From positions 16,007-80,006 of the forward strand of contig JAFVUD010000005.1 of NCBI GenBank assembly GCA_017502865.1: DNA of 64,000 nucleotides. The letters run 5' to 3'. Shown piece by piece: positions 6,504 to 30,029 of the stretch; position 1 is the stretch's first letter; each line of letters opens with the position of its first letter. The translations under genes and the position numbers were made by a program. Below the pieces are notes generated by a model. The model worked only from the letters and a program-made list of their open reading frames with translations, was not told the origin of the DNA and did not search any database. This DNA is from Alphaproteobacteria bacterium (GTDB taxonomy: Bacteria > Pseudomonadota > Alphaproteobacteria > Rs-D84).

Positions 6504-9500
6504 TTACCAAGGCATATATCCATCATAACATTCACGGATACACTTCTTGCTGTAATCATCCCAGTACATATATCCTGTTTCGTCGCGGTGTTCTTCTTCG
6601 CTGCAAATTGGGATACACTCGTTCCCTTCCAGGATATACTTTTCACCCTGATACATACATGTTGCGATTTCACATCCGTTCACATAACTGCTTACTGCAA
6701 CTTCGCCCAGGACACTGAACTTGTTCTTGCACTGGCCGCATTGTTTTGAATGTTCATTGGTTTCGAATTTATCATTTGTATAACCTGGGTCACAGACGGT
6801 TGCCTGGCATTCACCCCATGATTTTGTCACATGATTCCATTCTTTGATACCAATACCATTTTCAACAACACAGTCTTGGATATCGGCCACACATGCATTT
6901 GACATCAAATGATATTCTTCGGCACATTCTGTAATTGTGCAGATACCATAAGACTTGGTATTTTTGTTCCAAACCTGTTGTGCGGCAACCGCATTTGGTG
7001 CAGAACATTCCACAACATTTGCATCGCAACGTGAACCGTTTGGATGATAGCCGCTGACACATGTTTCAACCGCACATACGCCTGTGTTATTATATGTCAA
7101 CGCATTTTCACGATCACATGCTTCGCAGTGTCCAGATTTCATTTCATAGCCCGTGCGACATTCCGTCACGACACAAACACCGTCAACAACTTTACATGGA
7201 TTGCCATCTGGGTCTGTCCATGTATAGTCACACTGTTCTGGCCAGAATACAGTATCTTTTGCTGCAACGCCGACACCATTTTCGATTTCTGTGCGTGGAC
7301 AGTTGGCATAGCACTGTTCTGCCTTGCTTGCCCCCTTAACCGACAGGATATGTGTGCCACCGGTCAGTTCACTACATGACTTTGGTTCACCATCCCAATC
7401 TGGGTCGCTTGGGTCACAAACCATGCCTTCTGGACACAGTACACATGCGCCATTGCTCAGGAAATATCCCGCAGCACATGCTGTGATTTCACAAGTGTCC
7501 GCCATACCATAGTAGTCACGCCCAGACATTTCTGCTGCATTTGCACCCATTGCACATGTTGCATAGCACTGGTTAACATTACTAATACCTGCATCAGACA
7601 TTGTATGCGTACCACCGGTTAATGTCGAACATGTCTTTGGTTTGTCGTCCCAGCCTGGGTCACTTGGGTCACATACGCTGCCTGCTGGACAGACTTCGCA
7701 TGTGCCATTACTTAAATAGTACCCCGCACCACATGCTGCGATTTCACAAGTGTCCGCCATGCCATAGTAATCACGGCCAGACATTTCTGCTGCGTTTGCA
7801 CCTGTTGCACACGTTGTATAGCACATGTTGATGTCGCTGTTGCCCGCATCAGACATTGTGTGTGTACCACCGGTCAGTTCACTACATGACTTTGGTTCGC
7901 CGTCCCAGTCTGGATCGTGTGGGTCACACACGCTGCCTGCTGGGCAAACAACACATGCACCGTCGCTTAAATAATAGCCTTCGTCACAAATTGTCACTTC
8001 GCATGTGTCTGCGATGCCATAGTAATCACGTCCAATAATTTCCATAACATTTTCTGGTTTCTGGCAATCGGTATAGCACATGCTTTCGTCACTGGTCCCC
8101 AGATCTGATTCTGCATGTGTGCCGCCGGTCAATTCATAGCAGTCTTTTGGTTCGTGGTCTGAACCCGGATAGCACACGCCACCTTCTGGACAAATGATAC
8201 ATGCTTCGCCATCTTTCACATAATAGCCACCTTCGCATGATACGACCTCGCATGAATCTGGCACGTTTTCACCATAATAATCAACCCCGGTCATTTCTGT
8301 CGCATTTTCCACCTTTGCACAGTCTGCATAACACATATTGACGTCGCTGTTACCTGTTTCAGACATAGTGTATTTACCACCTGTCATTTCTGCACATGTC
8401 TTTGGTTCGCCGTCCCAGTCTGGGTCGCTTGGGTCACACACACTGCCTGCTGGGCAGGGGTCGCATCTGCCATTGTTTAGGAAATATCCCGCAGCACATG
8501 CTGTGATTTCACAAGTGTCCGTTATGCCATAGTAATCACGTCCAGACATTTCTGTTGCGTTTACACCCATTGCACACGTTGTATAGCACATATTGATGTC
8601 ACTGATACCTTCGTCTGACAATTTATGTGAACCATTGGTCAGTTCTGAACATGTCTTTGGTTCGCCGTCCCAGTCTGGATCCGTTGGGTCACAAACCATG
8701 CCTTCTGGACAGATTTCGCATTTTCCATCCAACTCATAGTATCCGGCACCGCAGCCATCGACTTCGCATGTTGTACAGTTTGTGTAATTACCTGTTGCTT
8801 CATCGTAATTACATGTCTGCAAACCTGAACCATTTGCGATTTCGCATTCAACTTCTTCGTGATAGCATTCTGCCGCACTTGCACTGGTCTGGGTTGCGGT
8901 CAATCCATCGTCTGGACACATTTGACGTGCAATCATATAATTGGTGAATGTTTCATGTGCAACCGGTCCATAGTAACCATAGTCCACCGGTGAACAGTCT
9001 GCATCTTGGTCATTTTCCCACCAATATCCATCATCACACTGTTGCATAATGATTGTGCCACAGTTTGTATCATAAACACTTGTCGCATCGTTGTAATAGC
9101 ACAACTGAACGCCCGACCCGTGTTCTGCCACGTATGGTGTATCTGTCTTATAGCAGAATGTAGATGCCGTTGCTGTTGTGCCTGATGTTAAGCCGCCTTC
9201 TGGACATGGGTCACGGTTCACATCATCTTTTTCACTGTAATAGTTCTGGCCAACTTCGACACAGTCAATTGCCGATGCGTTTTCACGATAATAACCGCCA
9301 TTACATTTTGTAATCACTTTGTCACGACAGTCTGTTTCGTACTTTGCACTTGAACCTTCACCACTGGTATATGTACATGTCTGGGTACCTGAACCGTTGC
9401 CCGATGCAGGGGTGTATGCCAACCCTGTCTTAAAGCATTCGTTCACAGTCGCCGCAGTCGCCGTATCGGTCACACCATTATTTGGACATGCTGTACGTGT

Positions 9501-12500
9501 GATTGGACCGTTCGGGCTGTACCAGTTGTTACCAACAACGGAACAATCGATACCTGTTTCATAATAGTGCCCCGCAACACAACTGGTTATAACAATGTCG
9601 TTACAGTCGCGGTCATATGCATCGCCACCCCAGAAACATGTCTGTGTACCTGCACCGTTGGCTGCGACATATTCCAGACCGACCTGATAGCAAACACCTT
9701 CATCTGTCGCTGTAACCCCACCGGCCGAGAAGCCCGCTTCTGGACATGAATTCAGCCCACCAACATTGCCTGTATCGGTACCGAAATCACCACCTGGGCA
9801 CCAACTGTTTGGTTCACAGACCGAACATTCGTTTCCTGTGCCTGGGTAATAATAACCTGGATCACAGTGTGTTGTGCCGGCCGCCCACATTGGATATACA
9901 ATGGAATTGTCTGTAACGGCTGTCAATGCTTCTTCTGTGGTCAAGAATTTACCTGTTGAATCGACAATCATAACACCTGAATTGTCTTGTTCTGTATTCA
10001 CGCCCACAAATGTATACCCCGCCAATGCTGGTTTAGTATTCAAACTTGTAATTCCTTGCACTTCACCACCGTCTAAATACCAGCCTGTTGCGTATTTTAA
10101 ATACACAGTCTGTGGGTCGGCTGCCTGATCCGTGCCATCTGCACTTATGGTAATTTCAAAGATATTTGGCTGCCATGCTGCGAACAGTGTCACATTACTG
10201 CCGTCTGCCGACAGATTTTCTGCAACGTTTGAACCGGCTGTATAGCATGTGCCTTTGCCCGCTTTATCTGTGCACCATTTATACAACGGCAGATATCCTG
10301 GTCTGGACAATGCGCGGTTTACGGGCAGGGTACATGACCCACTGTCAAATGTACACTGAACAGATTCCGCAACATCACCTGTACCACCGTTTTTATCCAG
10401 ATAAACTGTATATTTAACTGGATCGCACGATGGTGTGGCACCTGGAACCGGTGTGTATCCCGTTTCGCATGTCAATGTATATTCACATGTTTCATATTCG
10501 CCATTATTCCACATTCCGCGTAAATCATCGTTTGTAGATGTGACTGATGTACTGTGTGCCACATCATCAACTGTCTTGTCGCATGCGACATAACATGTGT
10601 TTATGCTGTCACGTGGGCTAATGGAGCCGTCGCCACCTTCGCAGAATTGACGTTCCAATTCATCGTCGGCACTGTAATAGCCATTTCCCACTGGTGAACA
10701 ACCAACTACGCCTGCACCTGCATAATAGTAACCTGCATCACATGTCAGCGGAACCACACGACAGTTTGTATTGTACACGGCACTGTCGCCACTGCCACTG
10801 GTGTAATAACAATCCCATTGTGCAGTCCCATTCTCGAAATTCTTAGAATCATCTGTTATAACTTTGTGACAATCATTAATGGTTGTACTGCCACTGTTTG
10901 ATGTATAACCGCCCGCTGGACATGTGTCATTACATCCTGTTGTGCCACTGGACACTTCGCCCGCTGCGTCACAGTAATATGGTGCCACGCATGTTGTCCA
11001 TGTGCCGTTGTTCATATATTTACCGGCAACACAGTTTTCGACTGTCTGGCTCCACACTGCGGTCAGTGTTGTATCGCTTAAGAATGTCTTGTTGCTTGGC
11101 AATACACCATCTGCACCAATCACAACATTGCCACTGGTATCTTTATATCCGCCAAACGCATAGTTTGTGCGTGTTGGGACTGTGATTTTTGTCATAGCGG
11201 TTGTCGCAGTCGATGTTGAATAGAATCCAACAGAATACTTTTCATATACCGTCGCTGTGCCACCTGTGCCACCATTTGCATTTAATGTAATTGCATAGAT
11301 GTTTGGTGAACAGATATCTGCCGCATTTGTCGCCGCCGCAACATATGTAAAGCCCTGGTTGCAAGAATAGACAACATCTGGACATGCGTACGCCGATTGT
11401 GAACAGATATTTGGACTGCCATATTCTATAGTACCTGTCTTGCTTTCGTTGGTATATGTAACGGTACCGCGATCGCTTTGTGGTGCCACTGGCGCTGTAC
11501 ACTGAACTGTGCATGATTTTGTACACATTGTGTTTGCACTGCCGGTGGTACAGATATCATATGTACCTGTCCAGCCGTCGCCCAATGTTGAACATTGGGT
11601 TTGGCAATCTGTACATGTACCATATTTTGGGTATTCATCTGCAGCACAATAACAGGTACCTGCCGATGTCGAATTACATGTGCTCCAAATCGCATACAGT
11701 GTCAAATCACCTGTATGTGTTCCTGGATAAATCGCAGTGATTACATCATGTGCATTGCCCTGTGTCAAAGACCATCCTTCGAAATTATGCCCAGGATATG
11801 TTACATTTGGCAACTGGATTGTCCCCGAATTTATGTTATAACTGGTAGTCGGTGTCCCACTGATTGTACCACCATTGGTTTCGTATGTAATTGTCCAGTC
11901 TGATTCCAGCGCATACTGTGCCGTAAATGTGACGTCTTTTGTGTATGTCCATGTGATATATTGATATGCAGGATATGTGGCCGTACCCGATGACCAACCC
12001 GCGAATTTATACCCTACATTTGGTGTACACACCGATGCCGCAGGCAATCTGTAATCGGTGCCATACTGAACCGTTGCACCTGCTGGACTGCCGGTACCGT
12101 TTGCACCGCAATCATAACTGACAGAATATGTATTTACCGTCCATGATGCCCAGAATTCGAAATCACCGATTTCTGTTGCTGTAATGGTAATGGCAGGTGT
12201 GCATTCTGCCGAACCAGATGCTGGGTTTGATGTACACCACCCAGCAAATGTATAACCGGTCTTGGTTGGCGTTATGTCAACATCTGTTCTTGTGCCATAT
12301 GTATGTGTTGTTGGCAATGCTTCTGTCACAGAACCACCATCCAGATTCCATGTGATGTTATAAACCTCGGCTGAACATGATGGTGTTGGTGTGTTGGACC
12401 CGGCCAGGCTTGTGTATCCTGGCAAACATGATGTGGTGTACACACATGAACCACTGCTGGCATTTAATGAACATGTGGCCCCAGTCCCCGGATTACATGC

Positions 12501-14282
12501 GGTACATTCACTCCACTGTGCAGTCAGTACCTGATTACCTGTGTGTGTCCATTGGAATGTGGCACCTGGCATATATACAGCACCCGAACTGGATAATTTC
12601 CATCCCCGGAACGTGGCGGTTGGATGTGTACATACATTTTCTCCAACGGTTACAGTCCGGTTATAGTAAAAATATTCTGGTGTCGGCAGGGTGCCTGAAC
12701 CACCGTTACAGTTATACTGCAAATGATATGACTCTGGTATCATCTTGGCATAATATGTCTTGTCACCGGTTGTGCCAACTGGCAAACTGGTCACTGCGGT
12801 ACCTGTGAAAGAACTGTTTGTGTACCATCCACCGAATGTATATCCTGTTGCACTTGGGGTTGGCAGGGTCACAGCCTGCTTAATCGTGTATGACGTATTG
12901 CCAATTGGTGAATCCAAGGTCACAGCCACAGACGAATCAATCGCATCAATAATGTTATATGTGATATTATATGTTATCGGTGTACACTGTGGTGTCGCAG
13001 TACCCGAATTTCTAATGTTTGAATACCCTGGCAAACATGATGTAGTATACACACATGAACCACTGCTGGTATTCAACGAACATGTTGCACCTTCACCTGG
13101 TTTACATCCTGTACATGAATCCCATTGGGCCACCATTGTGACTTCTTCATCCAGATAATTCCATGTAATACTTGTGCCCGGATTGTATTCGTGTTCAGCA
13201 CCATTGGCTGTATATTTCCATCCTGCAAATGTTGATGTTGAATTAGTACATGTGTTGTTTGGGAATTTAAATGTTGAATCGTATTGAATATCAAGTGTTG
13301 CCGGTGCCGTGCCCGTTCCCGTACCACAGTCAAATATAACCTTAGAAGTGCTTGCCTTGTATGTTGCGTCCAATACATATGAAATATAATCATCCGTATC
13401 GCTTGTCACTTCGGTTCCATCATTTAATACATACGTTGACACAGCGGTACCGTCGTCGTTATTGACAAGACTTTTTAAGTATGCCCCATAAGAGCCTGTC
13501 TCGGCATATGTACATGGCACGGTCGCACCCGCTGTATATGTTTTTCCATTTGATGCGGTCCATTTTTCAAATGTATACCCTGTTTTGTTATATACCGGCA
13601 GTGTATAAGAAGAACCGTATTCACAATGCACATAATAACCGGTGTCGGTGATATGCATGTCGCGTTTGCCATTTACCAACAATTCCATATATATATTATT
13701 GGGGCCCCAATCTGGTGTCACAACCAGCGATGTCACACCCGGGTGCATAATTTTATCATATGTTATGGATTTTCCCCGCTTAACTGTCTGTGTGTCCCCA
13801 GAATTAGTTGTCAGTATCCAGTCATAATAGTTCTGACTGCCAGAATAACCAGATTGCAGGCTCTTTACATGATACCCATCGCGTTCGCAGTATTCTTCTG
13901 GGGCATAGTCGATTGAAAATGCCTCGTTGTATTTTACGTCCATGGCGGCCGGCAATGTTTTTATTTCGGAACCTTCACCACAACTAAACGTCACTTTGAT
14001 TGTATCTTCGACACAACTTTCGCCACTGCCCACGGACGTTGATGTTGAGTCACTGGAATTCACATATCCGTCATTACATGTACATGTTGAACTGGTATTA
14101 TTCGCTGTTGACGTGGAATTTGCTGGACATGATGCGCATATGCCTGTGAATGGCATAAAATATCCCGCATTACACGATGTATAGGTAGATGCACATGTAT
14201 AGCCCGCAGACCATGCATTTTGTGCAAAAACAATCATCAACAAAGTTGCAAAAAAGCCCAGAATTTGGCGGATTTTTCCCAT
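6504..14282 (-). CDS. Giant secreted cysteine-rich modular surface protein (2,592 aa)
   Basis: ATG at 14282 preceded by GAGAGGAAG. Signal peptide MGKIRQILGFFATLLMIVFAQNAWSA. About 9 GY(T/K)F.GW InlB-B-repeat-like units, then ~90-aa Cys-rich modules, six 83-aa tandem modules and a Cys-rich C-terminus. Confidence 0.9.
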   Translation of the reverse strand: MGKIRQILGFFATLLMIVFAQNAWSAGYTCASTYTSCNAGYFMPFTGICASCPANSTSTANNTSSTCTCNDGYVNSSDSTSTSVGSGESCVEDTIKVTFSCGEGSEIKTLPAAMDVKYNEAFSIDYAPEEYCERDGYHVKSLQSGYSGSQNYYDWILTTNSGDTQTVKRGKSITYDKIMHPGVTSLVVTPDWGPNNIYMELLVNGKRDMHITDTGYYVHCEYGSSYTLPVYNKTGYTFEKWTASNGKTYTAGATVPCTYAETGSYGAYLKSLVNNDDGTAVSTYVLNDGTEVTSDTDDYISYVLDATYKASTSKVIFDCGTGTGTAPATLDIQYDSTFKFPNNTCTNSTSTFAGWKYTANGAEHEYNPGTSITWNYLDEEVTMVAQWDSCTGCKPGEGATCSLNTSSGSCVYTTSCLPGYSNIRNSGTATPQCTPITYNITYNIIDAIDSSVAVTLDSPIGNTSYTIKQAVTLPTPSATGYTFGGWYTNSSFTGTAVTSLPVGTTGDKTYYAKMIPESYHLQYNCNGGSGTLPTPEYFYYNRTVTVGENVCTHPTATFRGWKLSSSGAVYMPGATFQWTHTGNQVLTAQWSECTACNPGTGATCSLNASSGSCVYTTSCLPGYTSLAGSNTPTPSCSAEVYNITWNLDGGSVTEALPTTHTYGTRTDVDITPTKTGYTFAGWCTSNPASGSAECTPAITITATEIGDFEFWASWTVNTYSVSYDCGANGTGSPAGATVQYGTDYRLPAASVCTPNVGYKFAGWSSGTATYPAYQYITWTYTKDVTFTAQYALESDWTITYETNGGTISGTPTTSYNINSGTIQLPNVTYPGHNFEGWSLTQGNAHDVITAIYPGTHTGDLTLYAIWSTCNSTSAGTCYCAADEYPKYGTCTDCQTQCSTLGDGWTGTYDICTTGSANTMCTKSCTVQCTAPVAPQSDRGTVTYTNESKTGTIEYGSPNICSQSAYACPDVVYSCNQGFTYVAAATNAADICSPNIYAITLNANGGTGGTATVYEKYSVGFYSTSTATTAMTKITVPTRTNYAFGGYKDTSGNVVIGADGVLPSNKTFLSDTTLTAVWSQTVENCVAGKYMNNGTWTTCVAPYYCDAAGEVSSGTTGCNDTCPAGGYTSNSGSTTINDCHKVITDDSKNFENGTAQWDCYYTSGSGDSAVYNTNCRVVPLTCDAGYYYAGAGVVGCSPVGNGYYSADDELERQFCEGGDGSISPRDSINTCYVACDKTVDDVAHSTSVTSTNDDLRGMWNNGEYETCEYTLTCETGYTPVPGATPSCDPVKYTVYLDKNGGTGDVAESVQCTFDSGSCTLPVNRALSRPGYLPLYKWCTDKAGKGTCYTAGSNVAENLSADGSNVTLFAAWQPNIFEITISADGTDQAADPQTVYLKYATGWYLDGGEVQGITSLNTKPALAGYTFVGVNTEQDNSGVMIVDSTGKFLTTEEALTAVTDNSIVYPMWAAGTTHCDPGYYYPGTGNECSVCEPNSWCPGGDFGTDTGNVGGLNSCPEAGFSAGGVTATDEGVCYQVGLEYVAANGAGTQTCFWGGDAYDRDCNDIVITSCVAGHYYETGIDCSVVGNNWYSPNGPITRTACPNNGVTDTATAATVNECFKTGLAYTPASGNGSGTQTCTYTSGEGSSAKYETDCRDKVITKCNGGYYRENASAIDCVEVGQNYYSEKDDVNRDPCPEGGLTSGTTATASTFCYKTDTPYVAEHGSGVQLCYYNDATSVYDTNCGTIIMQQCDDGYWWENDQDADCSPVDYGYYGPVAHETFTNYMIARQMCPDDGLTATQTSASAAECYHEEVECEIANGSGLQTCNYDEATGNYTNCTTCEVDGCGAGYYELDGKCEICPEGMVCDPTDPDWDGEPKTCSELTNGSHKLSDEGISDINMCYTTCAMGVNATEMSGRDYYGITDTCEITACAAGYFLNNGRCDPCPAGSVCDPSDPDWDGEPKTCAEMTGGKYTMSETGNSDVNMCYADCAKVENATEMTGVDYYGENVPDSCEVVSCEGGYYVKDGEACIICPEGGVCYPGSDHEPKDCYELTGGTHAESDLGTSDESMCYTDCQKPENVMEIIGRDYYGIADTCEVTICDEGYYLSDGACVVCPAGSVCDPHDPDWDGEPKSCSELTGGTHTMSDAGNSDINMCYTTCATGANAAEMSGRDYYGMADTCEIAACGAGYYLSNGTCEVCPAGSVCDPSDPGWDDKPKTCSTLTGGTHTMSDAGISNVNQCYATCAMGANAAEMSGRDYYGMADTCEITACAAGYFLSNGACVLCPEGMVCDPSDPDWDGEPKSCSELTGGTHILSVKGASKAEQCYANCPRTEIENGVGVAAKDTVFWPEQCDYTWTDPDGNPCKVVDGVCVVTECRTGYEMKSGHCEACDRENALTYNNTGVCAVETCVSGYHPNGSRCDANVVECSAPNAVAAQQVWNKNTKSYGICTITECAEEYHLMSNACVADIQDCVVENGIGIKEWNHVTKSWGECQATVCDPGYTNDKFETNEHSKQCGQCKNKFSVLGEVAVSSYVNGCEIATCMYQGEKYILEGNECIPICSEEEHRDETGYMYWDDYSKKCIRECYDGYMPW
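7300..8760 (-). repeat. Six tandem ~250-bp intragenic repeats inside the giant gene
   Basis: The DNA motif catg(a/t)ctttggtt...gggtcaca recurs near 7375, 7630, 7880, 8140, 8395 and 8650. The encoded module is C..CP.G.VCDP.DPDWDGEPK.C.ELTGGTH.MSD...NMCY..C...EMSGRDYYG.ADTCE..AC.AGY.L.NG. Confidence 0.9.
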
Positions 14283-14361
14283 ATCTTCCTCTCTTTTGTA
14301 TAAAATGGTAGTAAAATCACTGCCACATACGCAAGCGAAAAAATAGGACATTTTTTAATAA

Positions 14362-14393
14362 ATAAAAAAATCCGCCGAAAACGGCGAATTTTT
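14362..14393 (-). terminator. Terminator after tRNA(CAT)
   Basis: Minus-sense TTCGCCG-TTTT-CGGCGGA followed by TTTTTTT. Confidence 0.8.
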
Positions 14394-14397
14394 ATTC

Positions 14398-14473
14398 TGG
14401 TGGGTTAGGTAGGACTCGAACCCACGACCAAAGCGTTATGAGCGCTCCGCTCTAACCACTGAGCTACTAACCC
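14398..14473 (-). tRNA. tRNA with CAT anticodon (elongator Met or Ile2-lysidine type), CCA encoded
   Basis: Acceptor GGGTTAG/CTAACCC, anticodon loop CTCATAA, T-arm GTGGGTTCGAGTCCTAC. It lacks the initiator GGG/CCC anticodon stem. Confidence 0.9.
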
Positions 14474-14575
14474 ACGGCCACACATTATATATACTTTCGA
14501 TTTTTATGCAAGGGAAAAAAATTCAACAGGGCGATTTGCTTTATAACAATATTGCGATTTGATAAATTTTATGCC

Positions 14576-15862
14576 ATGATATCAACCATGGCACTGATTG
14601 CACCGATTTTAAGTGATACACAAATGACTGCGTTCAACACAATCGAACGCACAAATTCCAATCTGCTTATCATGGGCCAGGCTGGAACCGGAAAATCCAC
14701 ATTTGTAAATTACCTGAAATCTGCATCAAAAAAAAGAATAATCTGTGCATGTCCAACGGCGGTGTCCGCATTAAATATTGGCGGTCAAACGATTCATTCG
14801 CTGTTTCAAATCCAGCCACGTGATTTTATTATGCCCGAATTATTAAAGTTAAAGGCAAAACCACGTAATATTTTAACCGCCACAGATGTTTTAATCATCG
14901 ATGAAATTTCAATGGTTGCCCCCGATTTGCTGGATGCGATTGACATACTGGCACGTATGGCCCGCCGCAACAATGAACCATTTGGTGGAATCCAGGTTGT
15001 TGCCATTGGTGATTTGTTTCAATTGCCCCCGGTTATAACACGTGCAGCAACCGAATATTATCGTGATGCATACGAACACGAAAACGCATATTTCTTTGAC
15101 AGTAATGTTTATCGCCGTTCAAACTTTATTCGATTTAACTTTGATCATGTCTATCGTCAAAACGATGGGGCACTGCTGGAAAATTTGGTGCGATTGCGTA
15201 ATCGTGATATTGGTGCACTGGAATTCTTTAATGATTGTAAAATAGACGACCCTGAACGTCGTTCTAATGCTGTTTTAATCACGCCGTTTCGTGATGTGGC
15301 CGAACGTATAAACACAATGCGCCTGAATCAAATAAATGCCCCAGAATTTGTTTATAATGGTGTTCTGTCGGGCAATTTTTCAGATCGTGATGTTCCTGCA
15401 CCATTAAACCTGACGTTAAAAGTAGGGGCGTTGGTCGTATTTGTAAAAAACGGTGATAAATGGCACAACGGTTCTATGGGGATTGTTCGTGATATGACCG
15501 CCCGCAACATAACGGTCCAGTTGTTGTCAGACACACGTGAAACAGTTGTTGTAAAGCCAGAAAAATGGGAAAAGATTGAATATTCCCGTGATGAAAACGA
15601 CCGCATTGTCGAAAACGAAGTAGGGGCGTATAAGCAGTTTCCATTAAACCTGGGCTATGCCATGACCATACACAAGGCCCAGGGAAAAACACTGGATGCG
15701 GTTGTTATTGATATGGCACGTGGTGCATTTGCCCATGGCCAAACCTATGTTGCATTATCACGCACCCGCAGTGCAACTGATATGCACATTGCATACCCAT
15801 TACGTCCACGTGATGTTATATTTGATAATCGTGTGTTGGATTTTGTTAACGCTGATTTTTAA
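14576..15862 (+). CDS. PIF1/RecD-like superfamily-1 DNA helicase
   Basis: Walker A GQAGTGKST, Walker B IIDEISMV, GDLFQLPPV, AMTIHKAQGKTLD, YVALSRTRS. The start is uncertain (TTG at 14552, ATG at 14576 or 14588). Confidence 0.8.
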   Translation: MISTMALIAPILSDTQMTAFNTIERTNSNLLIMGQAGTGKSTFVNYLKSASKKRIICACPTAVSALNIGGQTIHSLFQIQPRDFIMPELLKLKAKPRNILTATDVLIIDEISMVAPDLLDAIDILARMARRNNEPFGGIQVVAIGDLFQLPPVITRAATEYYRDAYEHENAYFFDSNVYRRSNFIRFNFDHVYRQNDGALLENLVRLRNRDIGALEFFNDCKIDDPERRSNAVLITPFRDVAERINTMRLNQINAPEFVYNGVLSGNFSDRDVPAPLNLTLKVGALVVFVKNGDKWHNGSMGIVRDMTARNITVQLLSDTRETVVVKPEKWEKIEYSRDENDRIVENEVGAYKQFPLNLGYAMTIHKAQGKTLDAVVIDMARGAFAHGQTYVALSRTRSATDMHIAYPLRPRDVIFDNRVLDFVNADF

Positions 15863-16877
15863 TATCTTGCTTCATCAACGAATAAAACCATTCGCCATTA
15901 TACCGCAAATCATCCAGATTTACATTCCCGCCATTGACCAGTTTGTCTATTGGTGGCACTGGCTGACCCGCCCAGCGCATTGCGTTCACAATGGCATTTC
16001 GTTCTGCTTCGAATAACAAAACCCCATCATCGGTCAGTGCCTGTGGTTTTACCAAACCGTCATTTTTGTGTTCTTCGCCGAATCCAGTATTTGTTTCACC
16101 AACTGCGAACACGTGTGCACCGCCCTGGGGAAAATAGACCGGCGGTAAATCTGCCCAGTTATCGGTCACATAGTCTGAAAATTTGTTGTGAAAATTCATT
16201 CGTGTATCAGATGCCGACATAAACGACAATGTTGTGAACTTTGGGTGTTCCAGTGGTGCAATTGGACCGTGCTGAATCACAATAATATTTCGCTGAATCT
16301 GGCGAATGGCCTCCGGGCTGCCCCCCATAGTTTTTAATTTGCCCGCCATATATTGCCCCAGCATATACAACGTCGCCGCCCCATGTGAATGTACATAGAA
16401 TCTAACGAATGATGCATTATACGCTGTCTTGTCCACTTGGACACCGTTGGTGTCCAATACTAGTATTGGAAGAATAACTTTGTTATACAGTTGTTCGATA
16501 TATCGTGGCGTTGGTTCGTTTGAATCCATTAAATCTGTATAACTGTCTATGACAAATTGCAACCGTCCTGTTTTTCTAAGTTTGTGCCCCGCACGTTTGA
16601 ATAAATTTATGCGTTCAACACCCGGGTCACGTGAACCAAAATCATAGTATGCTGAATAAATGTCTGCATCTGTAATACTGGCGGATTCTAATGTCGATTT
16701 AATCTGTTTGATATAATAATTTGCATTCCGTGGTGTAAATGTTAACTCGCCACCGATTATAATAATTGTTGGGCGTTGTGGCACGATTGTACCCGCTGCA
16801 ACAACGCCCCAGACGTTTTTATCGTCTTTTGGAACTGCTTTGACAATATCAATATTACTTGGTTTGTAATCGTGCAT
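15846..16877 (-). CDS. Hypothetical protein, possible alpha/beta-hydrolase fold
   Basis: 343 aa. FYVHSHGAATLY resembles a nucleophile elbow (x-H-S-H-G). It is the last gene of the lon-like operon, and its 3' end overlaps the convergent helicase by 17 nt. Confidence 0.5.
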   Translation of the reverse strand: MHDYKPSNIDIVKAVPKDDKNVWGVVAAGTIVPQRPTIIIIGGELTFTPRNANYYIKQIKSTLESASITDADIYSAYYDFGSRDPGVERINLFKRAGHKLRKTGRLQFVIDSYTDLMDSNEPTPRYIEQLYNKVILPILVLDTNGVQVDKTAYNASFVRFYVHSHGAATLYMLGQYMAGKLKTMGGSPEAIRQIQRNIIVIQHGPIAPLEHPKFTTLSFMSASDTRMNFHNKFSDYVTDNWADLPPVYFPQGGAHVFAVGETNTGFGEEHKNDGLVKPQALTDDGVLLFEAERNAIVNAMRWAGQPVPPIDKLVNGGNVNLDDLRYNGEWFYSLMKQDIKNQR

Positions 16878-16883
16878 TGTTTT

Positions 16884-17270
16884 TTATATATCCTTTCGCA
16901 TCATAATGGCATCAACGCCATCATAGTACCGTGGTCGCACGCCAATCTGCACAAATCCATTCTGTTCATACAGTGCACGTGCCGGTGTGTTATCCGCCGC
17001 CACCTCTAAGAATATATGTTTTACGCCTGATTTTTTCAAGTCTGCTTCCATCACGCCCAATAACGCAACCCCAATCCCCGTGCGACGTGCATCGGGATGA
17101 ACACCTATTGTGATAATTTCCGCTTCGTCCAGGGTTGTTCGATATACGATGAAACCATTTTGACTGGCAATAATTTCACAGCCCGATTTTTTCAAGTCAC
17201 CAAAATCATCGGCCGACCATGGCTTGTGCGGGAAGCACAGTTTATGAAGATTTGCTAATTCTTTTAACAT
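16884..17270 (-). CDS. rimI: Ribosomal-protein-alanine N-acetyltransferase (GNAT)
   Basis: 128 aa. Acetyl-CoA motif RRTGIGVALL. It is adjacent to and overlaps tsaB, the usual arrangement. Confidence 0.75.
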   Translation of the reverse strand: MLKELANLHKLCFPHKPWSADDFGDLKKSGCEIIASQNGFIVYRTTLDEAEIITIGVHPDARRTGIGVALLGVMEADLKKSGVKHIFLEVAADNTPARALYEQNGFVQIGVRPRYYDGVDAIMMRKDI

Positions 17271-17806
17271 TTTTTGTTTTCTTCGGCATAACTGGGACGC
17301 AGATACATTGGCACAACTGGTTCTAAATTCCCCGATGCAATTTTTTGTTCCGCAATCTGGGTACCTAATTTCAAATCAAATGGTCTGTGCCCAACTGTGC
17401 GTGACCATTCCATCTGTTTTGTTTCGATTTCTTCGATTTCCATTGTGCATGGTTCCAATCCATTTGCCCCAACAAAGAAGTCCCCTCGACCAGACTCAAT
17501 CGCAACAAACGCATCTGGTGTGGCGGCCAAATATAAATCAAATGCACTGATACCAACCACTGGGATATTCAATCCCATTGCCAATCCTTTGGCATATGCA
17601 ATCCCCAAACGAATTCCTGTAAAACTGCCCGGTCCAATAACAACACCAATGGCACTTAAATCATTCCACTTTGTGCCACATTCATCCATAAACTTTTCGC
17701 ATTCTGTGGCCAACGCAACCGATTGCTTTTCAACCGAAACAGATTTGTATTTGTTGCCCAATACAAATTCTAAATCTTTGCCAGATGTGTTTATGATTAA
17801 AATCAT
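17264..17806 (-). CDS. tsaB: tRNA t6A biosynthesis protein TsaB (short form)
   Basis: MILIINTSG...GPGSFTGIRLGIAYAKG motif. At 180 aa it is shorter than usual. Confidence 0.75.
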   Translation of the reverse strand: MILIINTSGKDLEFVLGNKYKSVSVEKQSVALATECEKFMDECGTKWNDLSAIGVVIGPGSFTGIRLGIAYAKGLAMGLNIPVVGISAFDLYLAATPDAFVAIESGRGDFFVGANGLEPCTMEIEEIETKQMEWSRTVGHRPFDLKLGTQIAEQKIASGNLEPVVPMYLRPSYAEENKKC

Positions 17807-18186
17807 TTTTGTTTTTCCTTGAATTGATTCAGCATATCAAACATGTAATGTGCGATTGTGCCTGCATGCCTGTGTTCACGTTTTGTTTCCTTGTCATTGA
17901 CCAGCATTTTATAGTGGTGCGAAATCATCATCGCTGGCACCCCGGGACAGTGCACCTTTAATGCAACAATATCATACCGCCCAGATTTTCCAATAACATA
18001 ATCATTTCGCAATGGCTTGCCCGGCACAGGTTCACTTTCTGTGCGAATTTGAAATTCGTGTGTCTGGGCATATTCTTCGATTTCTTTGAACAAATCAATC
18101 TGTTCCCAACCGTCGCCAATAATCGCCGCACGCACCGGCACGCCATTCAAAACAATGTCTGCAATATCTGGACGTTTTTTAGCCAT
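17803..18186 (-). CDS. Hypothetical protein (127 aa) translationally coupled to the lon-like gene
   Basis: Its ATG shares one nt with the upstream TAA (TAATG at 18188..18184), and there is a 4-nt overlap with tsaB. No Lon protease motifs are present. Confidence 0.5.
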   Translation of the reverse strand: MAKKRPDIADIVLNGVPVRAAIIGDGWEQIDLFKEIEEYAQTHEFQIRTESEPVPGKPLRNDYVIGKSGRYDIVALKVHCPGVPAMMISHHYKMLVNDKETKREHRHAGTIAHYMFDMLNQFKEKQK

Positions 18187-19943
18187 TATATACGTACCCC
18201 AAATCCAATCTTCTTGGCAAATCCCGCAGATTTACGCAACGCCAACAATTCGTCAATCTTTTCCGGTGTAAATTCAGTACGCACATCTTCGGCATTGTTT
18301 TCCAATAACGCACGACGCAGAATTGCTGTGATTTCACGTTGCAGTTCACGCACCCCTTGTTCCGAAGTGTAATTTTGAACAATATGGCGAATTGCATCGT
18401 CATCAATTACAATGTTATTGATATCCCAACCGGTATCATGTGCCGCACGTGCAATCAAGTGTTCACGTGCAATCCGCACTTTTTCATCCATGGAATATCC
18501 TGGAATTTCGATAATTTCCATACGGTCTTTCAATGCGTTTGATAAATTCAAACTGTTTGCAGTCGCAATAAACAACACATTCGACAGGTCAAAGTCCACT
18601 TCCAAATAATGGTCACGGAAAGTCTTGTTCTGTTCTGGGTCCAGAATTTCCAACAACGCAGATTCTGGGTCGCCACGCCAATCACGCCCCATCTTGTCAA
18701 TTTCGTCCAACACGATAACCGGGTTGTTAGATTTGCTGCGTTTTAATGCGTCCATAATACGCCCTGTTTGGGCACCAATATATGTTTTACGATGCCCACG
18801 GAAATGTGCTTCGTCTGAAATGCCACCCAATGAAATACGCTGATATTTACGTCCCAACGCATTCGCAATAGATTTGCCCAGCGATGTTTTACCAACACCT
18901 GGTGCCCCTACAAAGCACAAAATGCTACCCTGGTTAGACTTGGTCTTTTTCATCACTGCGATATGTTCCAAAATGCGTTCTTTGACCCCTTGCATGCCCG
19001 AATGTTCGCTGTCCAGAACATCACGTGCCGTCTGCAAGTCAATCTGCATCTTGTCGGCTTTGTCCCATGGCATGGCCAGCAATTCGTCCAAATACGTCTT
19101 TAACAAGCCACCTTCGTTTGACATTGGCGACATAGAACGCATACGTTTCCATTCGCTTAACGCTTTTTCTTTGGCATCACGTGGCATGTGTGATTTTTCA
19201 ATTTTCTTTTTCAGGTTTGCTGTATCTGCCTCTGGGTCTTCTTCGCCCATTTCTTTTTGAATCGCCCGCATTTTTTCTTGCAGTATAGCCTCACGCCGAC
19301 CGTTTTCCATTTGTTGCTGAATACGGCGATTAATGGCTTCTTCAATCTTGGCTGTTTCCACCAACAGATTTACCTGTTCCAACAAAATAACTAATTTTTC
19401 ATTCCATGATTTTGCCGCCAGTATTTTCAACGCCGCATCTGTTTCAATTTCTGCGTTTTGTACAACACAGTCAATAAATGCCGGCAATGGATAACTTTGA
19501 ATAACACTGCGCAGTTTATCCATTTTGAACTTGCGACTTAAAGACAGAAATTGCATTTTTTCTGCAATCTTGTCACGCAGAACCGTTGTTTGTTCTGCAT
19601 GCATGTCGTCTTGTAATTCGATTGGGGTTGCATTGCCAACGAAAATACCATCTTCGACCAGAATGTCGTCCAATTTTACCGCATCTGTCGTACGAATAAT
19701 CGCATGCAGCGAACCGTCTGGCATACGCAGAACCTGGGCAATATCACCAATTGTCCCAATATCATAAATATCTTTGACCGATGTTGGATAATTCCAACTG
19801 CGTTGTGCCACCAGTACCAGTTTTTGACCGATTTTTGCGGCCACTTCGATACACGCAATAGATGTTTTATTGTCAATATACACCGGCACAGTCAGTCCCG
19901 GATGTACAACAAAATCACGAAATGGTAAAATATATTGTTTCAT
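18186..19943 (-). CDS. LonA-like protein: LON N-domain plus AAA+ module, with no S16 protease domain
   Basis: N-terminal LON domain (ILPFRDFVVHPGLTVPVYI), Walker A GAPGVGKTSLGKS, Walker B VIVLDEIDKM, and sensor/alpha subdomain GVRELQREI. The ORF stops about where the protease domain normally begins, and no DGPSAG is found. Confidence 0.85.
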   Translation of the reverse strand: MKQYILPFRDFVVHPGLTVPVYIDNKTSIACIEVAAKIGQKLVLVAQRSWNYPTSVKDIYDIGTIGDIAQVLRMPDGSLHAIIRTTDAVKLDDILVEDGIFVGNATPIELQDDMHAEQTTVLRDKIAEKMQFLSLSRKFKMDKLRSVIQSYPLPAFIDCVVQNAEIETDAALKILAAKSWNEKLVILLEQVNLLVETAKIEEAINRRIQQQMENGRREAILQEKMRAIQKEMGEEDPEADTANLKKKIEKSHMPRDAKEKALSEWKRMRSMSPMSNEGGLLKTYLDELLAMPWDKADKMQIDLQTARDVLDSEHSGMQGVKERILEHIAVMKKTKSNQGSILCFVGAPGVGKTSLGKSIANALGRKYQRISLGGISDEAHFRGHRKTYIGAQTGRIMDALKRSKSNNPVIVLDEIDKMGRDWRGDPESALLEILDPEQNKTFRDHYLEVDFDLSNVLFIATANSLNLSNALKDRMEIIEIPGYSMDEKVRIAREHLIARAAHDTGWDINNIVIDDDAIRHIVQNYTSEQGVRELQREITAILRRALLENNAEDVRTEFTPEKIDELLALRKSAGFAKKIGFGVRI

Positions 19944-20018
19944 AGCAAGTCTAAATATAATACTTTTTAATAACTTTTCAAGGACAATGACACAACCAAA
20001 CTGTGTGAATTAATTCAT

Positions 20019-20343: not shown

Positions 20344-20690
20344 AAAAAGTTGCCCGATTTCTGGTGCCAGGCATCGGGCGTGCCCCGCAATTGCTAGAAC
20401 GAATATGATTAACAATCGCCAACCATATTCAACGCCATATTAGGCAGCCATTGCAAAGCGAACATTGTCGTTCGCAGCGATTCTATCGCCATTCAGTTTT
20501 TAGTCGGCTTTTAACGACGCCATGTCGGATTCACCCAATTTGTCTTTCATCACCTGTCGAATCTATGTCAGCCCCATATTCAAATGCGACCATTCATCAC
20601 ATTTGAAAATGGTGGAGCTGTGGGGTACCGCCCCCCAGTCCAAAATGACTATTTCACAACGGATTCAGAATCATCACCGTAAACGGCACC
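20344..20690 (-). ncRNA. ssrA: tmRNA (ssrA), circularly permuted two-piece type
   Basis: Reading the minus strand: TATAAT at 20700..20695. The acceptor piece ends ...TGGGGGGCGGTACCCCACAGCTCCACCA at 20610. A 34-nt spacer follows. The coding piece starts GGGGCTGACATAGATTCGACAGG at 20575. The tag ORF GCG AAC GAC AAT GTT CGC TTT GCA ATG GCT GCC TAA (ANDNVRFAMAA) lies at 20475..20440. The 3' GGCACC pairs with the 5' GGTGCC, and a terminator GCCCGAT...ATCGGGC plus T-run closes the gene. Confidence 0.85.
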
Positions 20691-20756
20691 AATAATTATA
20701 GTCTTTTACACTGGAAATTGCAAGTTTTTAAGTTATAATGAACCCAAAGGTTATAA

Positions 20757-22254
<1,498 letters not shown>

Positions 22255-22327
22255 TTTTTTGCATTTTTTGATATTCTCTGGTATGATTTTGCACAGAAAC
22301 ACAAAAACCATAAAGGAGAAGTACACA

Positions 22328-22951
22328 ATGGTATCATTAAAAGGTACACAAACAGAAAAAAATCTGTTAATTGCATTCGCCGGTGAATCCCAGGCTCGCA
22401 ACCGTTACACTTTCTTTGCATCCCAGGCTAAGAAAGAAGGTTTCCAGGCAATTTCTAAAATCTTTTTGGAAACCGCAGACCAGGAAAAAGAACACGCATC
22501 ACGTTTGTTCAAGTTCCTAGAAGGTGGCGACTTGGAAATCACAGCATCTTATCCTGCGGGCAAAATTGGCACAACATTGGAAAATTTACAGGCTGCTGCA
22601 TACGGTGAACACGAAGAAAACACCGACATGTATCCAAAATTTGCCCAGATTGCTGCCCAGGAAGGTTTCCCAGCAATCGCAGAAATCCTGAAAAACATTG
22701 GTTATGCCGAACGTTATCATGAATCACGTTTCCGCGCCTTGATAGATGCCATCGAAAACGGCACATTGTTCAAACAGGATCATATCGTTATGTGGCGTTG
22801 CACAAACTGTGGTATGTGGCACATCGGTACCGAAGCACCAAAAGTATGCCCAGCATGCTTGCACGAACAGGGCTACTTCATCAGCGAAGGTACAACATCA
22901 CGTTGTGACACCAACGAAGGTTTCTGTGAATACAGCGTTATCGACGACTAA
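22328..22951 (+). CDS. rbr: Rubrerythrin
   Basis: ATG at 22328 preceded by AAAGGAGAA. Ferritin-like EKNLLIAFAGESQARNRY and EKEHA motifs. C-terminal rubredoxin-like CTNCG...CPAC, plus about 20 extra residues. Confidence 0.9.
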   Translation: MVSLKGTQTEKNLLIAFAGESQARNRYTFFASQAKKEGFQAISKIFLETADQEKEHASRLFKFLEGGDLEITASYPAGKIGTTLENLQAAAYGEHEENTDMYPKFAQIAAQEGFPAIAEILKNIGYAERYHESRFRALIDAIENGTLFKQDHIVMWRCTNCGMWHIGTEAPKVCPACLHEQGYFISEGTTSRCDTNEGFCEYSVIDD

Positions 22952-25753: not shown

Positions 25754-26578
25754 TTATCGCTGTGGACCCGGATATTCGCCGTGCCAGAACATTGCATCCA
25801 ACTTTCTGCGTTGTGATCGCACCATGCGTAAAAATTTCAGTGTGCCCATAATAACGTTGCGATTTAATTTTCGGCCCATGGTGTCTTCATAATAATCCAT
25901 GTATTCACCATAGTTATTCAGTGGGTACGACCGGAATGTTTGCAGCACAGAAAAGTCATCGTTGCATACCGCAATCGCATCTAAATCGATTATGCGTGTC
26001 ACATTGAATTTGTCATCAATCAATATGTTTTTTGCATGTATATCGTTGTGCAGTAATTTGGCTTCGCCATATTGTGACATGTGCTTTGCGGCCAGTGCAT
26101 ATGCATCTGCCATTATGCGTTTCATATTCCACCGCATGCATGTTTTGAATATATCTGCAAAATATCGGCCCGATTGTGGTCTAAATTCGATTGGTGGTAT
26201 CTGCGATATTTTGCGTTGAATATCAATCGCCTGCTTATACGCATCAAAAATCTGGTCGCTTGTAATCTGGGCTTTTGTAATGTATTCATGCAGCGTTTTA
26301 TCTGGGCAATACGGGTACGTTTCAAACCAAGAATCCATATACGCACGCACGTTTGTTTGTGGTGTTGGAATATCATACATCTGCATTAAATTGGAAACCG
26401 TACGGTTATGCATAACAATGTTTGGGTCGTTAAATTTACATACCTGGGTGCCATCTGGCGTATCAACCAAGAAAACCGGACTGTGTGCACCACAGACCTC
26501 AGGTTTTCGTATGTTCCATGAATTTGGAAAAGTCACCTTGATTGCGGCATGATAAAAATCTGGTGTATGGTGTTGCAT
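25754..26578 (-). CDS. APH/choline-kinase-fold phosphotransferase (paralogue 2)
   Basis: Catalytic loop LLHNDIHAKNILID (HxDxxxxN) and metal-binding IIDLDAIAV. Confidence 0.7.
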   Translation of the reverse strand: MQHHTPDFYHAAIKVTFPNSWNIRKPEVCGAHSPVFLVDTPDGTQVCKFNDPNIVMHNRTVSNLMQMYDIPTPQTNVRAYMDSWFETYPYCPDKTLHEYITKAQITSDQIFDAYKQAIDIQRKISQIPPIEFRPQSGRYFADIFKTCMRWNMKRIMADAYALAAKHMSQYGEAKLLHNDIHAKNILIDDKFNVTRIIDLDAIAVCNDDFSVLQTFRSYPLNNYGEYMDYYEDTMGRKLNRNVIMGTLKFLRMVRSQRRKLDAMFWHGEYPGPQR

Positions 26579-26580
26579 AA

Positions 26581-27396
26581 TTATTTACGTCTTTGCTTAT
26601 GTTGCCATAACATTTTCTTGCCAAAATTATTCAGTCCAACCATACCCTGAATTCTGCTGCGACTTAATTTGTCGCCGGTCGTTTCTTCATAGAAATCCAT
26701 AAGTTCTTTTATATCGAACCCCAGATTTTTATACCATGATGCCATCGCACAGAATGCATAGTTTTTATTGCATATAACTGCACTGTCCAAATCAACAAAT
26801 CCGGCCAAATGTCCATCGTCTGTTATGATGGTATTTTTTGGTGACAGGTCTGAATGAATAATTGCCGTGTCGTTGCTTTTGCCCATATTGGCCACGTATG
26901 CAAACGCCATGAAAATATTTGCCAGTGTTTCATTGTTTGCCCGTGCCGTATGTTCACGTGCAAAGTTATGAAATTTGAATTGTGGGTTACTATTCAGTTG
27001 TATTGGATGTACACGTGTCATCTTTGCAAATTCCACCAAAATTTCACGATAAATCTGCTGAATTTGTTCTGGTGTAATCTGTCGGTTATTAATTGCCTGG
27101 TACAGTGTTTGACCCTGCATCAAAGGATACTTTTCAAAAAACAAACCATTGTCCGCATGTGCGGTTATTGTTGGTACAGGAATTTTGTGAACGGTTTTAT
27201 AAATTCGGCTGATTTTTGCGTTCTTACGCACGGTTGCATCATTTCCAAATTTGAAAATAAATTGTTCCTTGTCGGTTTCTGCAATCAAAACATTATCCAG
27301 TGACCCCCGTATTTCAGGCATACGAATTTCAACAGGCTGATTGGCCATGTGTGCACGAATTGCATTGCAATATGTTCTAAATTGTCCATCTGTCAT
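26581..27396 (-). CDS. APH/choline-kinase-fold phosphotransferase (paralogue 1)
   Basis: IIHSDLSPKNTIITDD and FVDLDSAVI. It is tandem to the previous gene with a 2-nt gap. Confidence 0.7.
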   Translation of the reverse strand: MTDGQFRTYCNAIRAHMANQPVEIRMPEIRGSLDNVLIAETDKEQFIFKFGNDATVRKNAKISRIYKTVHKIPVPTITAHADNGLFFEKYPLMQGQTLYQAINNRQITPEQIQQIYREILVEFAKMTRVHPIQLNSNPQFKFHNFAREHTARANNETLANIFMAFAYVANMGKSNDTAIIHSDLSPKNTIITDDGHLAGFVDLDSAVICNKNYAFCAMASWYKNLGFDIKELMDFYEETTGDKLSRSRIQGMVGLNNFGKKMLWQHKQRRK

Positions 27397-27468
27397 AATA
27401 AATCCACTAATATTTGTCCAAAATATTTTATAGTCAATATATCAAAAGTCAAGGGAATAGGGGGATTT

Positions 27469-29970: not shown

Positions 29971-30029
29971 GTTCTTTTCTCTCCAGTTGTCGTCCAATTA
30001 TACAAATATCTGCTCAACCTGTCAACCGC

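Follow-up and report, generated by a model that had tools for sequence, protein, structure and literature searches.

A giant cysteine-rich modular protein with a strongly conserved C-terminal domain, candidate surface adhesin of Enterousia-like alphaproteobacteria

Giant adhesins of Gram-negative bacteria (LapA, SiiE and MpIBP, as well as autotransporters and two-partner secretion (TPS) proteins) share size, modular repeats, acidity, copy-number variation and a presumed attachment role with the product of a 7.8-kb gene that we analyse here. The gene lies in a 64,000-nt window, i.e. the whole stretch of DNA analysed (contig JAFVUD010000005.1), from an Enterousia-like alphaproteobacterium of the order Rs-D84, and encodes a 2,592-aa protein, the giant protein from here on, that by analogy may work like the giant modular adhesins. 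However, those adhesins are Cys-poor, and the giant protein contains 6.3% Cys. The repeats-in-toxin (RTX) adhesins use a type I secretion system (T1SS), have no Sec signal peptide and carry C-terminal RTX repeats, whereas the giant protein has a Sec signal peptide and no GGxGxD motif; type V secretion system (T5SS) adhesins carry a β-barrel or TPS domain, and the giant protein has neither. Giant surface proteins are also encoded in the reduced genomes of episymbionts (the candidate phyla radiation (CPR)/Patescibacteria, DPANN and Omnitrophota), to which the Enterousia protein can be likened. We know of no domains common to the two. What is shared is a very large, lineage-specific and putatively extracellular protein occupying about 1% of a genome below 1 Mb, in an organism for which dependence on a partner has been proposed (PMC12306168), with the difference that the Enterousia host is an alphaproteobacterium with an outer membrane.

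At the level of domains, three described groups bear comparison. Proteins with Flg_new / InlB B-repeats (PF09479 / TIGR02543) share the 8-10 such units in the N-terminal 40% of the giant protein, but the carriers known so far rely for anchoring on LPXTG, GW modules, lipid or the type IX secretion system (T9SS), of which the giant family has none, and they lack its Cys-rich modules between and after the repeats. Those modules have the C-x2-C and C-P-x-G spacing and the putative disulfide-ladder β-hairpins of Ephrin_rec_like/TNFR-type repeats (the EphA2 cysteine-rich domain (CRD), ELAPOR1, TNFR1 and DR6; the type of Giardia variant-specific surface proteins (VSPs) and ciliate surface antigens). 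They are larger (85-95 aa), with an extra β-sheet half, and VSPs have a C-terminal transmembrane (TM) anchor whereas the giant protein has none and its host is a bacterium. Finally, C-terminal sorting domains (the T9SS C-terminal domain, the autotransporter barrel and the β-signal of outer membrane proteins (OMPs)) share strict C-terminal placement and an invariant aromatic (Trp) end with the terminal domain of the giant protein. This domain differs in consisting of 235 aa with 24 Cys and hairpins, it matches no T9SS, PEP-CTERM or autotransporter model, and its terminal G-Y-x-x-W is off the canonical spacing of the OMP β-signal; the likeness is an analogy only. What sets this surface or adhesin-type giant protein apart is that its Cys-rich modules are of eukaryote type, that its terminal domain is new and that it matches no export or anchor system known so far, all this in a reduced-genome gut lineage that has hardly been studied.

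An earlier note on this DNA had described a single ORF for a secreted protein with about nine InlB-B-type units in its N-terminal third, followed by ~90-aa modules, six near-identical 83-aa modules and a Cys-rich C-terminus ending in CYDGYMPW, and most of this anatomy holds (Table 1). The gene translates without internal stop from the ATG at 14282. A longer mechanical ORF extends up to an ATG at 14351; the start at 14282, from which the note had also counted, is the one with a Shine-Dalgarno sequence (AGAGAGGAAG) in front of it and gives an N-terminus (MGKIRQILGF...) that fits the conserved start of relatives, MGK(K/I)R..LGF. The gene is monocistronic and is flanked on both sides by terminator-like hairpins, of which the upstream one, belonging to a tRNA-Met gene, isolates it from upstream transcription. 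With 164 Cys, 12.6% Thr and 10.5% Gly, the product is very acidic (D+E 307 vs K+R 113) and rich in Thr and Ser. In the predicted Sec signal peptide, n-, h- and c-regions can be recognised together with a cleavage site of the AxA type. The peptide is the sole hydrophobic segment of the protein in a hydropathy scan, and both the peptide and its predicted cleavage context, NAFA↓AGY(T/S)C, are conserved in about 57 relatives (here MGKIRQILGFFATLLMIVFAQNAWS↓AGYTC).

Flg_new / List_Bact_rpt is the only family recognised in the giant protein by Pfam and NCBIfam, with scores far above the gathering cutoffs (PF09479, 156.6 bits in eight stretches vs a 27-bit cutoff; TIGR02543, 60.5 bits vs 20.95). A self-trained hidden Markov model (HMM) places eight units (aa 225-261, 315-387, 438-513, 519-590, 641-714, 719-790, 796-866 and 996-1077), to which two degenerate units can be added in a region conserved family-wide (..YTITLDKNGGTG..; ..VYLKYATGW.. 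in the family consensus, alignment A3), about 8-10 in all. The 6-Cys linker that the note had seen twice almost verbatim, C.PG.GATCSLN.SSGSCVYTTSCLPGY, is present at aa 390-433 and 593-636. The ~90-aa modules (class ii) form two blocks: the first (aa 1079-1270) matches aa 1513-1771 at no more than 39% identity over full modules and 42% over 73 aa (self-BLAST, E to 4e-20). The modules of the next kind (class iii) do number six, five plus a variant, but they are diverged rather than near-identical, being 49-78% identical to one another in protein, with a DNA period of 255 bp, 5.3 copies and 68% matches (Tandem Repeats Finder, TRF). The Cys-rich C-terminus ends as described, and its last 235 aa make up a separate domain.

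The giant protein belongs to an undescribed, lineage-restricted family, of which it is locally an unusually expanded member. It carries the signal peptide with AGY(T/S)C, the class ii and iii modules, the terminal 235-aa domain and the syntenic locus of the Enterousia-type family. Eighteen clear relatives, 1,330-1,942 aa long and in many cases fragmentary, came from the first homology search, and family ORFs in related loci range from ~1,540 to over 3,570 aa, with 120-220 Cys each. Members share the N-terminal ..NAFA↓AGY(T/S)C..YTSCN.GYY and the extreme C-terminus KKC-x-R-T-C-x-x-G-Y-x-x-W-COOH; a G-aromatic-x-x-W end is found in 75 of the 88 family ORFs longer than 500 aa, with G(-5) and W(-1) in 75/75. 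Class-iii modules usually occur in two copies in relatives (one plus the variant), and the six of the window are the maximum seen. In the literature found on Enterousia, Rs-D84, bacterial GCC2_GCC3 and Cys-containing Listeria-Bacteroides repeats, the family is not described.

The most informative feature is one that the earlier note missed, i.e. the strong conservation of the C-terminal 235 aa. An exhaustive profile search of 1.84 billion representative proteins finds the domain in 773 proteins at E<=1e-3 (282 at E<=1e-30) of up to 4,444 aa, and in nearly all of these the match reaches the last residue of the protein. Across species the domain is 46-58% identical to the window copy (mean column identity 58%), compared with 28-45% for whole proteins, and it has no Pfam, NCBIfam or PDB match. 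Its central sub-unit (residues 42-146 of alignment A1; ~C..NG.G..W......C....C..GYH....C) is also found, repeated in tandem, in extracellular proteins of other bacteria that are unannotated and not related to the family. Given its pattern of conservation, the C-terminal domain is the first candidate to consider as the “missing” determinant of anchoring or sorting. A search of a 5.8-billion-protein database with the A2 profile gave one match, but this search is word-index limited and uninformative on distribution.

When 185,579 species genomes were scanned with the C-terminal-domain profile, 159 coding stretches were recovered, nearly all from gut metagenome-assembled genomes (MAGs) assigned to Candidatus Enterousia, uncultured Alphaproteobacteria, Proteobacteria or Rickettsiales, with human, chicken, ruminants, roe deer, yak, buffalo and termite as sources. 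The window itself can be assigned to an alphaproteobacterium by its permuted tmRNA, which is of the two-piece alpha type (Rfam RF01849; 143.8 bits; tag AANDNVRFAMAA). Enterousia genomes (order Rs-D84) measure ~0.67-1.0 Mb and lack respiratory chains and amino-acid, nucleotide and lipid pathways, and an obligate life as symbionts or parasites of other cells has been suggested for these bacteria (PMC12306168); Rs-D84 is found in lower and higher termites (PMC11257099). Four records labelled Muribaculaceae, Bacteroides fragilis and Clostridia (L077 (OZ246409.1), L032, L057 and L013) carry Enterousia-type genes and synteny, and their odd labels are probably due to mislabelling or binning contamination. 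The first of these, a 716,531-bp “chromosome 1” record labelled Muribaculaceae, may be a complete Rs-D84 chromosome; its family ORF lacks the terminal ...GY..W.

The family occupies a conserved housekeeping locus, comprising Lon, TsaB, RimI, PIF1 helicase, tRNA-Met, the giant gene, an HI0933-like flavoprotein and a hydrolase. The HI0933-like gene recurs beside it in 51 loci, PIF1 in 41, RimI in 37 and TsaB in 33; across 80 loci, housekeeping genes are the only neighbours that recur, with no secretion or anchor partner among them. In three genomes (L062, L073 and L038) a second large ORF of the family cluster stands in tandem on the same strand (Table 1). Both L062 copies end in ...GY..W, while the second ORFs of L073 and L038 are grouped by sequence similarity only. 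Several other MAGs have a second copy on a different contig.

Variation within the species could be followed by comparison with L001 (ERZ27316619), a separate metagenome assembly of the same species, whose flanking proteins are 98-100% identical to those of the window (PIF1 100%, Lon 99.7%, HI0933-like 97.9%). Over aa 990-2592 the L001 gene runs colinear with that of the window (94% nucleotide identity), with all six class-iii units present, and since the same array recurs in an independent assembly, repeat collapse, expansion or chimerism is unlikely; the ORF is uninterrupted in the window assembly. Protein identity to L001 is 79% over residues 1-100, falls to about 40% over residues 101-300, and is 95-96% over residues 401-600. 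Residues 638-989 (352 aa) are missing in L001 as an indel, after which identity is 86-99% over residues 1001-2000, 75% over residues 2001-2100 and 97-100% over the last ~300 residues. The hypervariable stretch, the indel and the near-invariant C-terminus together form the pattern expected of an exposed variable tip on a conserved base. A variable N-terminal part on a conserved C-terminal base would be the classic signature of an exposed, selected tip joined to a constrained anchoring or export module.

The cysteines are distributed in even numbers. Modules of the window have 6 or 8 Cys each, and across the family class-iii modules have 8 in 52 of 52 instances and class-ii modules 6, 8 or 10 in 156 of 157. 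Such parity is expected if all Cys are in intramodule disulfides, and does not fit 4-Cys metal sites. AlphaFold2 models built from family alignments have high confidence (predicted local distance difference test (pLDDT) 92.7 for aa 1745-1935, which cover the last class-ii and the first class-iii module, and 90.0 for the C-terminal domain), and the latter consists entirely of short β-hairpins with strands of 3-9 residues. The top-ranked hits of the module model are the EphA2 CRD, ELAPOR1, TNFR1, DR6, DcR3, OPG and the furin repeats of R-spondin; those of the C-terminal model are EGF arrays (Pvs25), the Entamoeba Gal/GalNAc lectin and clostridial combined repetitive oligopeptides (CROP) repeats. 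The note's suggestion that the modules look like eukaryotic disulfide-rich repeats therefore stands in part. The fold-class theme recurs, and Ephrin_rec_like/GCC2_GCC3 (PF07699) is recognised in 5 of 20 family members (E<=0.01; best E 3.7e-13; in the same sample TNFR_ELAPOR1_6th is found in 1 and Flg_new in 19). On the other side, the window protein falls below the PF07699 threshold (8.2 bits vs 23.1, E 2.8, aa 1075-1260), its Cys-rich segments give only sub-threshold hints of TNFR_ELAPOR1_6th, Ephrin_rec_like and EGF in Pfam at E<=10, and a PDB sequence search with the Cys-rich half and the A1 and A2 profiles found nothing meaningful. The modelled resemblance appears to hold at the level of fold class, while homology is not established for the window sequence.

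On these grounds we consider, with moderate confidence, that the giant protein serves as a surface adhesin or coat stabilised by disulfides, whose variable N-terminus is distal and whose conserved C-terminus provides for anchoring or export, and the chances that the family as a whole comprises giant Sec-exported, disulfide-rich surface proteins seem to us about even. Under this interpretation, the chain would cross the inner membrane unfolded, led by its cleavable signal peptide, after which the 6- and 8-Cys modules would fold and be locked by intramodule disulfides into a long, rigid, protease-resistant rod or stalk. The invariant C-terminal domain would lie next to the cell, either as a non-covalent envelope anchor or as the part recognised for transfer across the outer membrane, and the hypervariable, Flg_new-rich N-terminal part would be the distal exposed end that touches a partner cell, the host surface or the environment. 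Duplication and loss of modules could tune the length, with five class-iii modules plus the variant here and one plus the variant in most relatives. In a putatively partner-dependent host poor in biosynthesis, the giant protein is probably the best candidate for an attachment or coat protein. A more specific proposal, namely that the C-terminal domain is an unrecognised determinant of envelope anchoring or outer-membrane export, that the protein is an attachment organelle holding a partner cell, and that its modules fold oxidatively without an evident quinone-linked Dsb pathway, is in our judgement unlikely in its entirety.

Known routes of export and anchoring were considered in turn. As the earlier note had claimed, no recognised anchor or secretion domain can be found: Pfam and NCBIfam report Flg_new alone, regex and hydropathy scans of the protein show no lipobox, LPXTG, GGxGxD or C-terminal TM segment, and the C-terminal model is not a barrel. 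An RTX/T1SS adhesin can be rejected on the lack of GG.G.D motifs and of RTX matches in Pfam and NCBIfam and on the presence of the Sec-type signal peptide, and an autotransporter or other T5SS protein on the lack of a Pfam match and of a barrel in the last 235 aa, which form short hairpins with 24 Cys. Sortase, lipoprotein, T9SS, PEP-CTERM and GlyGly-CTERM sorting are not indicated by motif scans, and TIGR02543 is the sole NCBIfam match. A contact-dependent toxin (contact-dependent inhibition (CDI)/Rhs) would have a variable C-terminus, whereas here the C-terminus is the most conserved part, and there is no toxin domain. Diversification by a diversity-generating retroelement (DGR) was rejected as well, as no reverse transcriptase is present among the annotated ORFs of the window, and ~40% identity with indels exceeds adenine-specific mutagenesis.

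Several observations weigh against a disulfide-stabilised surface protein of the orientation that we prefer. Structural matches are all non-significant (Foldseek against PDB for both models and against BFVD for the C-terminal model; none at E<=0.001, E >= 0.02 throughout), with a best E of 0.28 and TM scores <= 0.28 in PDB for the model of class-ii and class-iii modules. No Dsb, VKOR or thioredoxin-type CxxC protein is present in the window and 80 loci, a small and mostly syntenic genome fraction. The orientation is read from conservation patterns alone, and a conserved distal ligand-binding head would look alike. The L001 allele has one in-frame TAG at codon 1575 (L001:14723-14725, given as the ortholog of window codon 1575, at about window 9558-9560), where the window has Tyr in the “CAAGY|F” motif at the start of the second class-iii unit, and the stop splits the L001 gene into products of 1,574 aa and 646 aa. 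The stop could be genuine, as a nonsense or phase-type allele, or stem from a sequencing error; if genuine, it would make the full-length protein dispensable in that strain. Finally, genes for an OMP β-barrel (OMP_b-brl, PF13505, 50.3 bits), MlaD and a PqiC-type lipoprotein (ABC_trans_aux) among the neighbours in related loci indicate that the lineage is diderm, so that a surface location requires a step of outer-membrane translocation, and no outer-membrane secretion system was found in the window and related loci, the same limited and mostly syntenic part of the genomes. The protein may therefore be periplasmic.

The alternative that survives best is the reverse orientation, in which the C-terminal domain would be a distal, lectin-like head for a conserved partner glycan or receptor, the repeats a stalk and the N-terminus the end near the cell; we regard this as possible but unlikely. 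The many invariant aromatics of the domain (W81, W125, W132, Y176, Y187, Y192 and W235 in A1) are as in carbohydrate-binding sites, the weak fold hits include the Entamoeba Gal/GalNAc lectin, the CROP repeats of TcdA/TcsL and glucan-binding repeats of glucansucrases, and the arrays of the A1 42-146 sub-unit suggest a binding module over a sorting signal. Those fold hits are, however, non-significant, and in hundreds of proteins the domain stands at the extreme C-terminus and closes with an invariant Trp, a placement more often seen in determinants of sorting or anchoring. Moreover, hypervariability among strains is found in the N-terminal part, as would suit an exposed tip at that end, and after cleavage of the signal peptide neither a lipobox nor a TM segment would be available as an N-terminal anchor.

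The protein could also be mainly a protective or antigenically variable coat, comparable to Giardia VSPs and ciliate immobilisation antigens, directed against gut proteases, immunoglobulin A (IgA) and phages, which we think quite unlikely as its main role. The dense packing of Cys modules of disulfide type, which are linked to GCC2_GCC3/Ephrin_rec_like repeats, the acidic, Thr/Ser-rich composition, allelic hypervariability with indels among strains, and the second tandem genes of some genomes would all suit a coat. On the other hand, the one or two copies that most genomes seem to have do not make a VSP-like switching repertoire, and it is in proteins of adhesin type that Flg_new repeats are typically found; in any case, one protein could be both coat and adhesin.

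That the protein is not displayed at all, but belongs to the periplasm or to the envelope structure, or is released as a soluble exoprotein, seems improbable. The diderm envelope and the lack of any outer-membrane translocation system, autotransporter barrel or T1SS, type II secretion system (T2SS) or T9SS signal speak for it, with the reservation that secretion genes are sampled sparsely across genomes. Strain-level hypervariability and the adhesin-type repeats argue for exposure, and a rod of 2.6-4.4 kaa would be hard to fit in the periplasm. An artefact or decay (chimera, repeat mis-assembly or pseudogene), which might be suspected in an organism known from metagenome assemblies only, with an in-frame stop in the L001 ortholog and fragments among the database homologs, is highly improbable given the uninterrupted 7.8-kb ORF, the diverged and hence easily assembled repeats, the colinear independent assembly and the dozens of species in which this locus holds an intact ortholog of 2-3.5 kaa.

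Candidatus Enterousia / Rs-D84 is widespread in human, livestock, bird and termite guts, and its partner and lifestyle are enigmatic (PMC12306168). One conserved gene that makes up ~1% of the genome and combines a hypervariable, putatively exposed end, an invariant novel C-terminal domain and eukaryote-like modules offers the most concrete handle on the interaction with host or partner, and might serve as an antigen or probe to find the partner, or as a strain-typing marker. It is also a test case for ~80 putative disulfides in a reduced-genome anaerobe, and for the passage of a 270-kDa protein across the outer membrane without a known secretion signal. Its importance would be greater if the C-terminal domain turned out to act as a new signal for sorting or anchoring, or if the Enterousia partner were identified through the protein.

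Table 1. Positions of the features of the giant gene and of other genes named in the text (window coordinates unless a locus is given)
Feature	Position	Strand	Basis
Complete gene, 2,592 codons + stop	6504..14282	-	stop-free translation
Shine-Dalgarno sequence, 3 nt upstream of ATG	14285..14294	-	read from sequence
Intrinsic-terminator-like hairpin, 9-bp stem with 7 GC pairs and T-run, beginning 6 nt past stop codon	6477..6498	-	
Upstream context: tRNA-Met (14398-14473) and its terminator (14366-14393)	14366..14473	-	
Sec-type signal peptide, aa 1-25, cleaved before A	14208..14282	-	predicted; n-, h-, c-regions and AxA-type cleavage site
Conserved mature N-terminus (AGYTC..YTSCNAGY..) and first Cys-rich stretch, aa 26-100, 7 Cys	13983..14207	-	family N-termini
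Strain-hypervariable region, aa 101-300	13383..13982	-	identity to same-species L001 ortholog
Flg_new (Listeria-Bacteroides / InlB B-repeat) array with Cys-rich linkers, aa 315-1077	11052..13340	-	PF09479 E 1.7e-46
Segment absent from L001 ortholog, aa 638-989: three Flg_new units and 13-Cys block	11316..12371	-	blastn and MAFFT
First class-ii block (~90-aa Cys-rich modules), aa 1079-1270, 14 Cys	10473..11048	-	self-BLAST
Two degenerate Flg_new-like units, aa 1293-1466	9885..10406	-	family consensus; self-BLAST aa 993-1045 vs 1372-1427
Four class-ii Cys-rich modules (8, 6, 6, 8 Cys), aa 1473-1843	8754..9866	-	self-BLAST
Five class-iii modules, 83-87 aa, 8 Cys each, aa 1844-2268	7479..8753	-	TRF and self-comparison
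Variant sixth class-iii module, aa 2269-2357, running into C-terminal domain	7212..7478	-	
C-terminal Cys-rich domain, aa 2358-2592, 24 invariant Cys, ending KKC.R.C..GY..W-COOH	6507..7211	-	alignment A1
Tandem family ORFs, L062	L062:2-10699 + 10756-19371		
Tandem family ORFs, L073	L073:425-10705 + 10855-19986		
Tandem family ORFs, L038	L038:5288-10705 + 11091-16067		
Lon homolog	18186-19943	-	
Permuted tmRNA	20348-20727	-	Rfam
Rubrerythrin	22223-22951	+	
Glycosyltransferase and kinase run	25754-29335		
219-aa secreted protein, 18 Cys	29338-29997	-	
416-aa secreted protein, 14 Cys	31221-32471	+	
Peroxiredoxin-like gene (FTPVCTSE motif)	35417-36190	-	
428-aa secreted protein	44402-45688	-	
642-aa coiled-coil protein	45951-47879	-	

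Elsewhere in the window, the anaerobe-type redox genes that the earlier note had pointed to are a rubrerythrin and a peroxiredoxin-like gene, both typical anaerobe oxidative-stress genes. The puzzle that the note raised stands, i.e. how a Dsb system would be re-oxidised in an organism that neither respires nor has quinones. Also present are the two smaller secreted proteins that the note had listed for their Cys, with 18 Cys in 210-219 aa and 14 Cys in 416 aa. The 18-Cys gene is the first of a same-strand run of close or overlapping genes, in which it is followed by glycosyltransferases (GT2 and GT8) and two APH-type kinases, and its product resembles class-iii modules marginally (E 0.013). 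Small secreted proteins of this kind, with 18-28 Cys, are also encoded in related loci (L028:19495-20256, L020:10803-11531, L059:13801-14442 and L066:12964-13719), and the lineage thus seems to have a broader Cys-rich secretome. The 14-Cys protein has no Pfam or NCBIfam match and does not resemble the giant protein.

The unannotated neighbouring proteins have no NCBIfam match. Two other proteins of the window, each without a family match, are further lineage-specific envelope candidates: a 428-aa secreted protein with degenerate ~25-aa “F..TF.G” repeats, and a 642-aa Cys-free coiled-coil protein with one N-terminal TM segment. Near the giant gene of L002 is a 164-aa gene with a domain of the major tropism determinant N-terminal type (Mtd_N; L002:22548-23042, - strand), with no reverse transcriptase seen nearby. 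The Lon homolog of the window is only 585 aa long, with LON substrate-binding, AAA and Lon-lid domains and no C-terminal S16 protease domain; the same 585-aa form is found in L001 and L002, and the Lon of this lineage may be protease-less.

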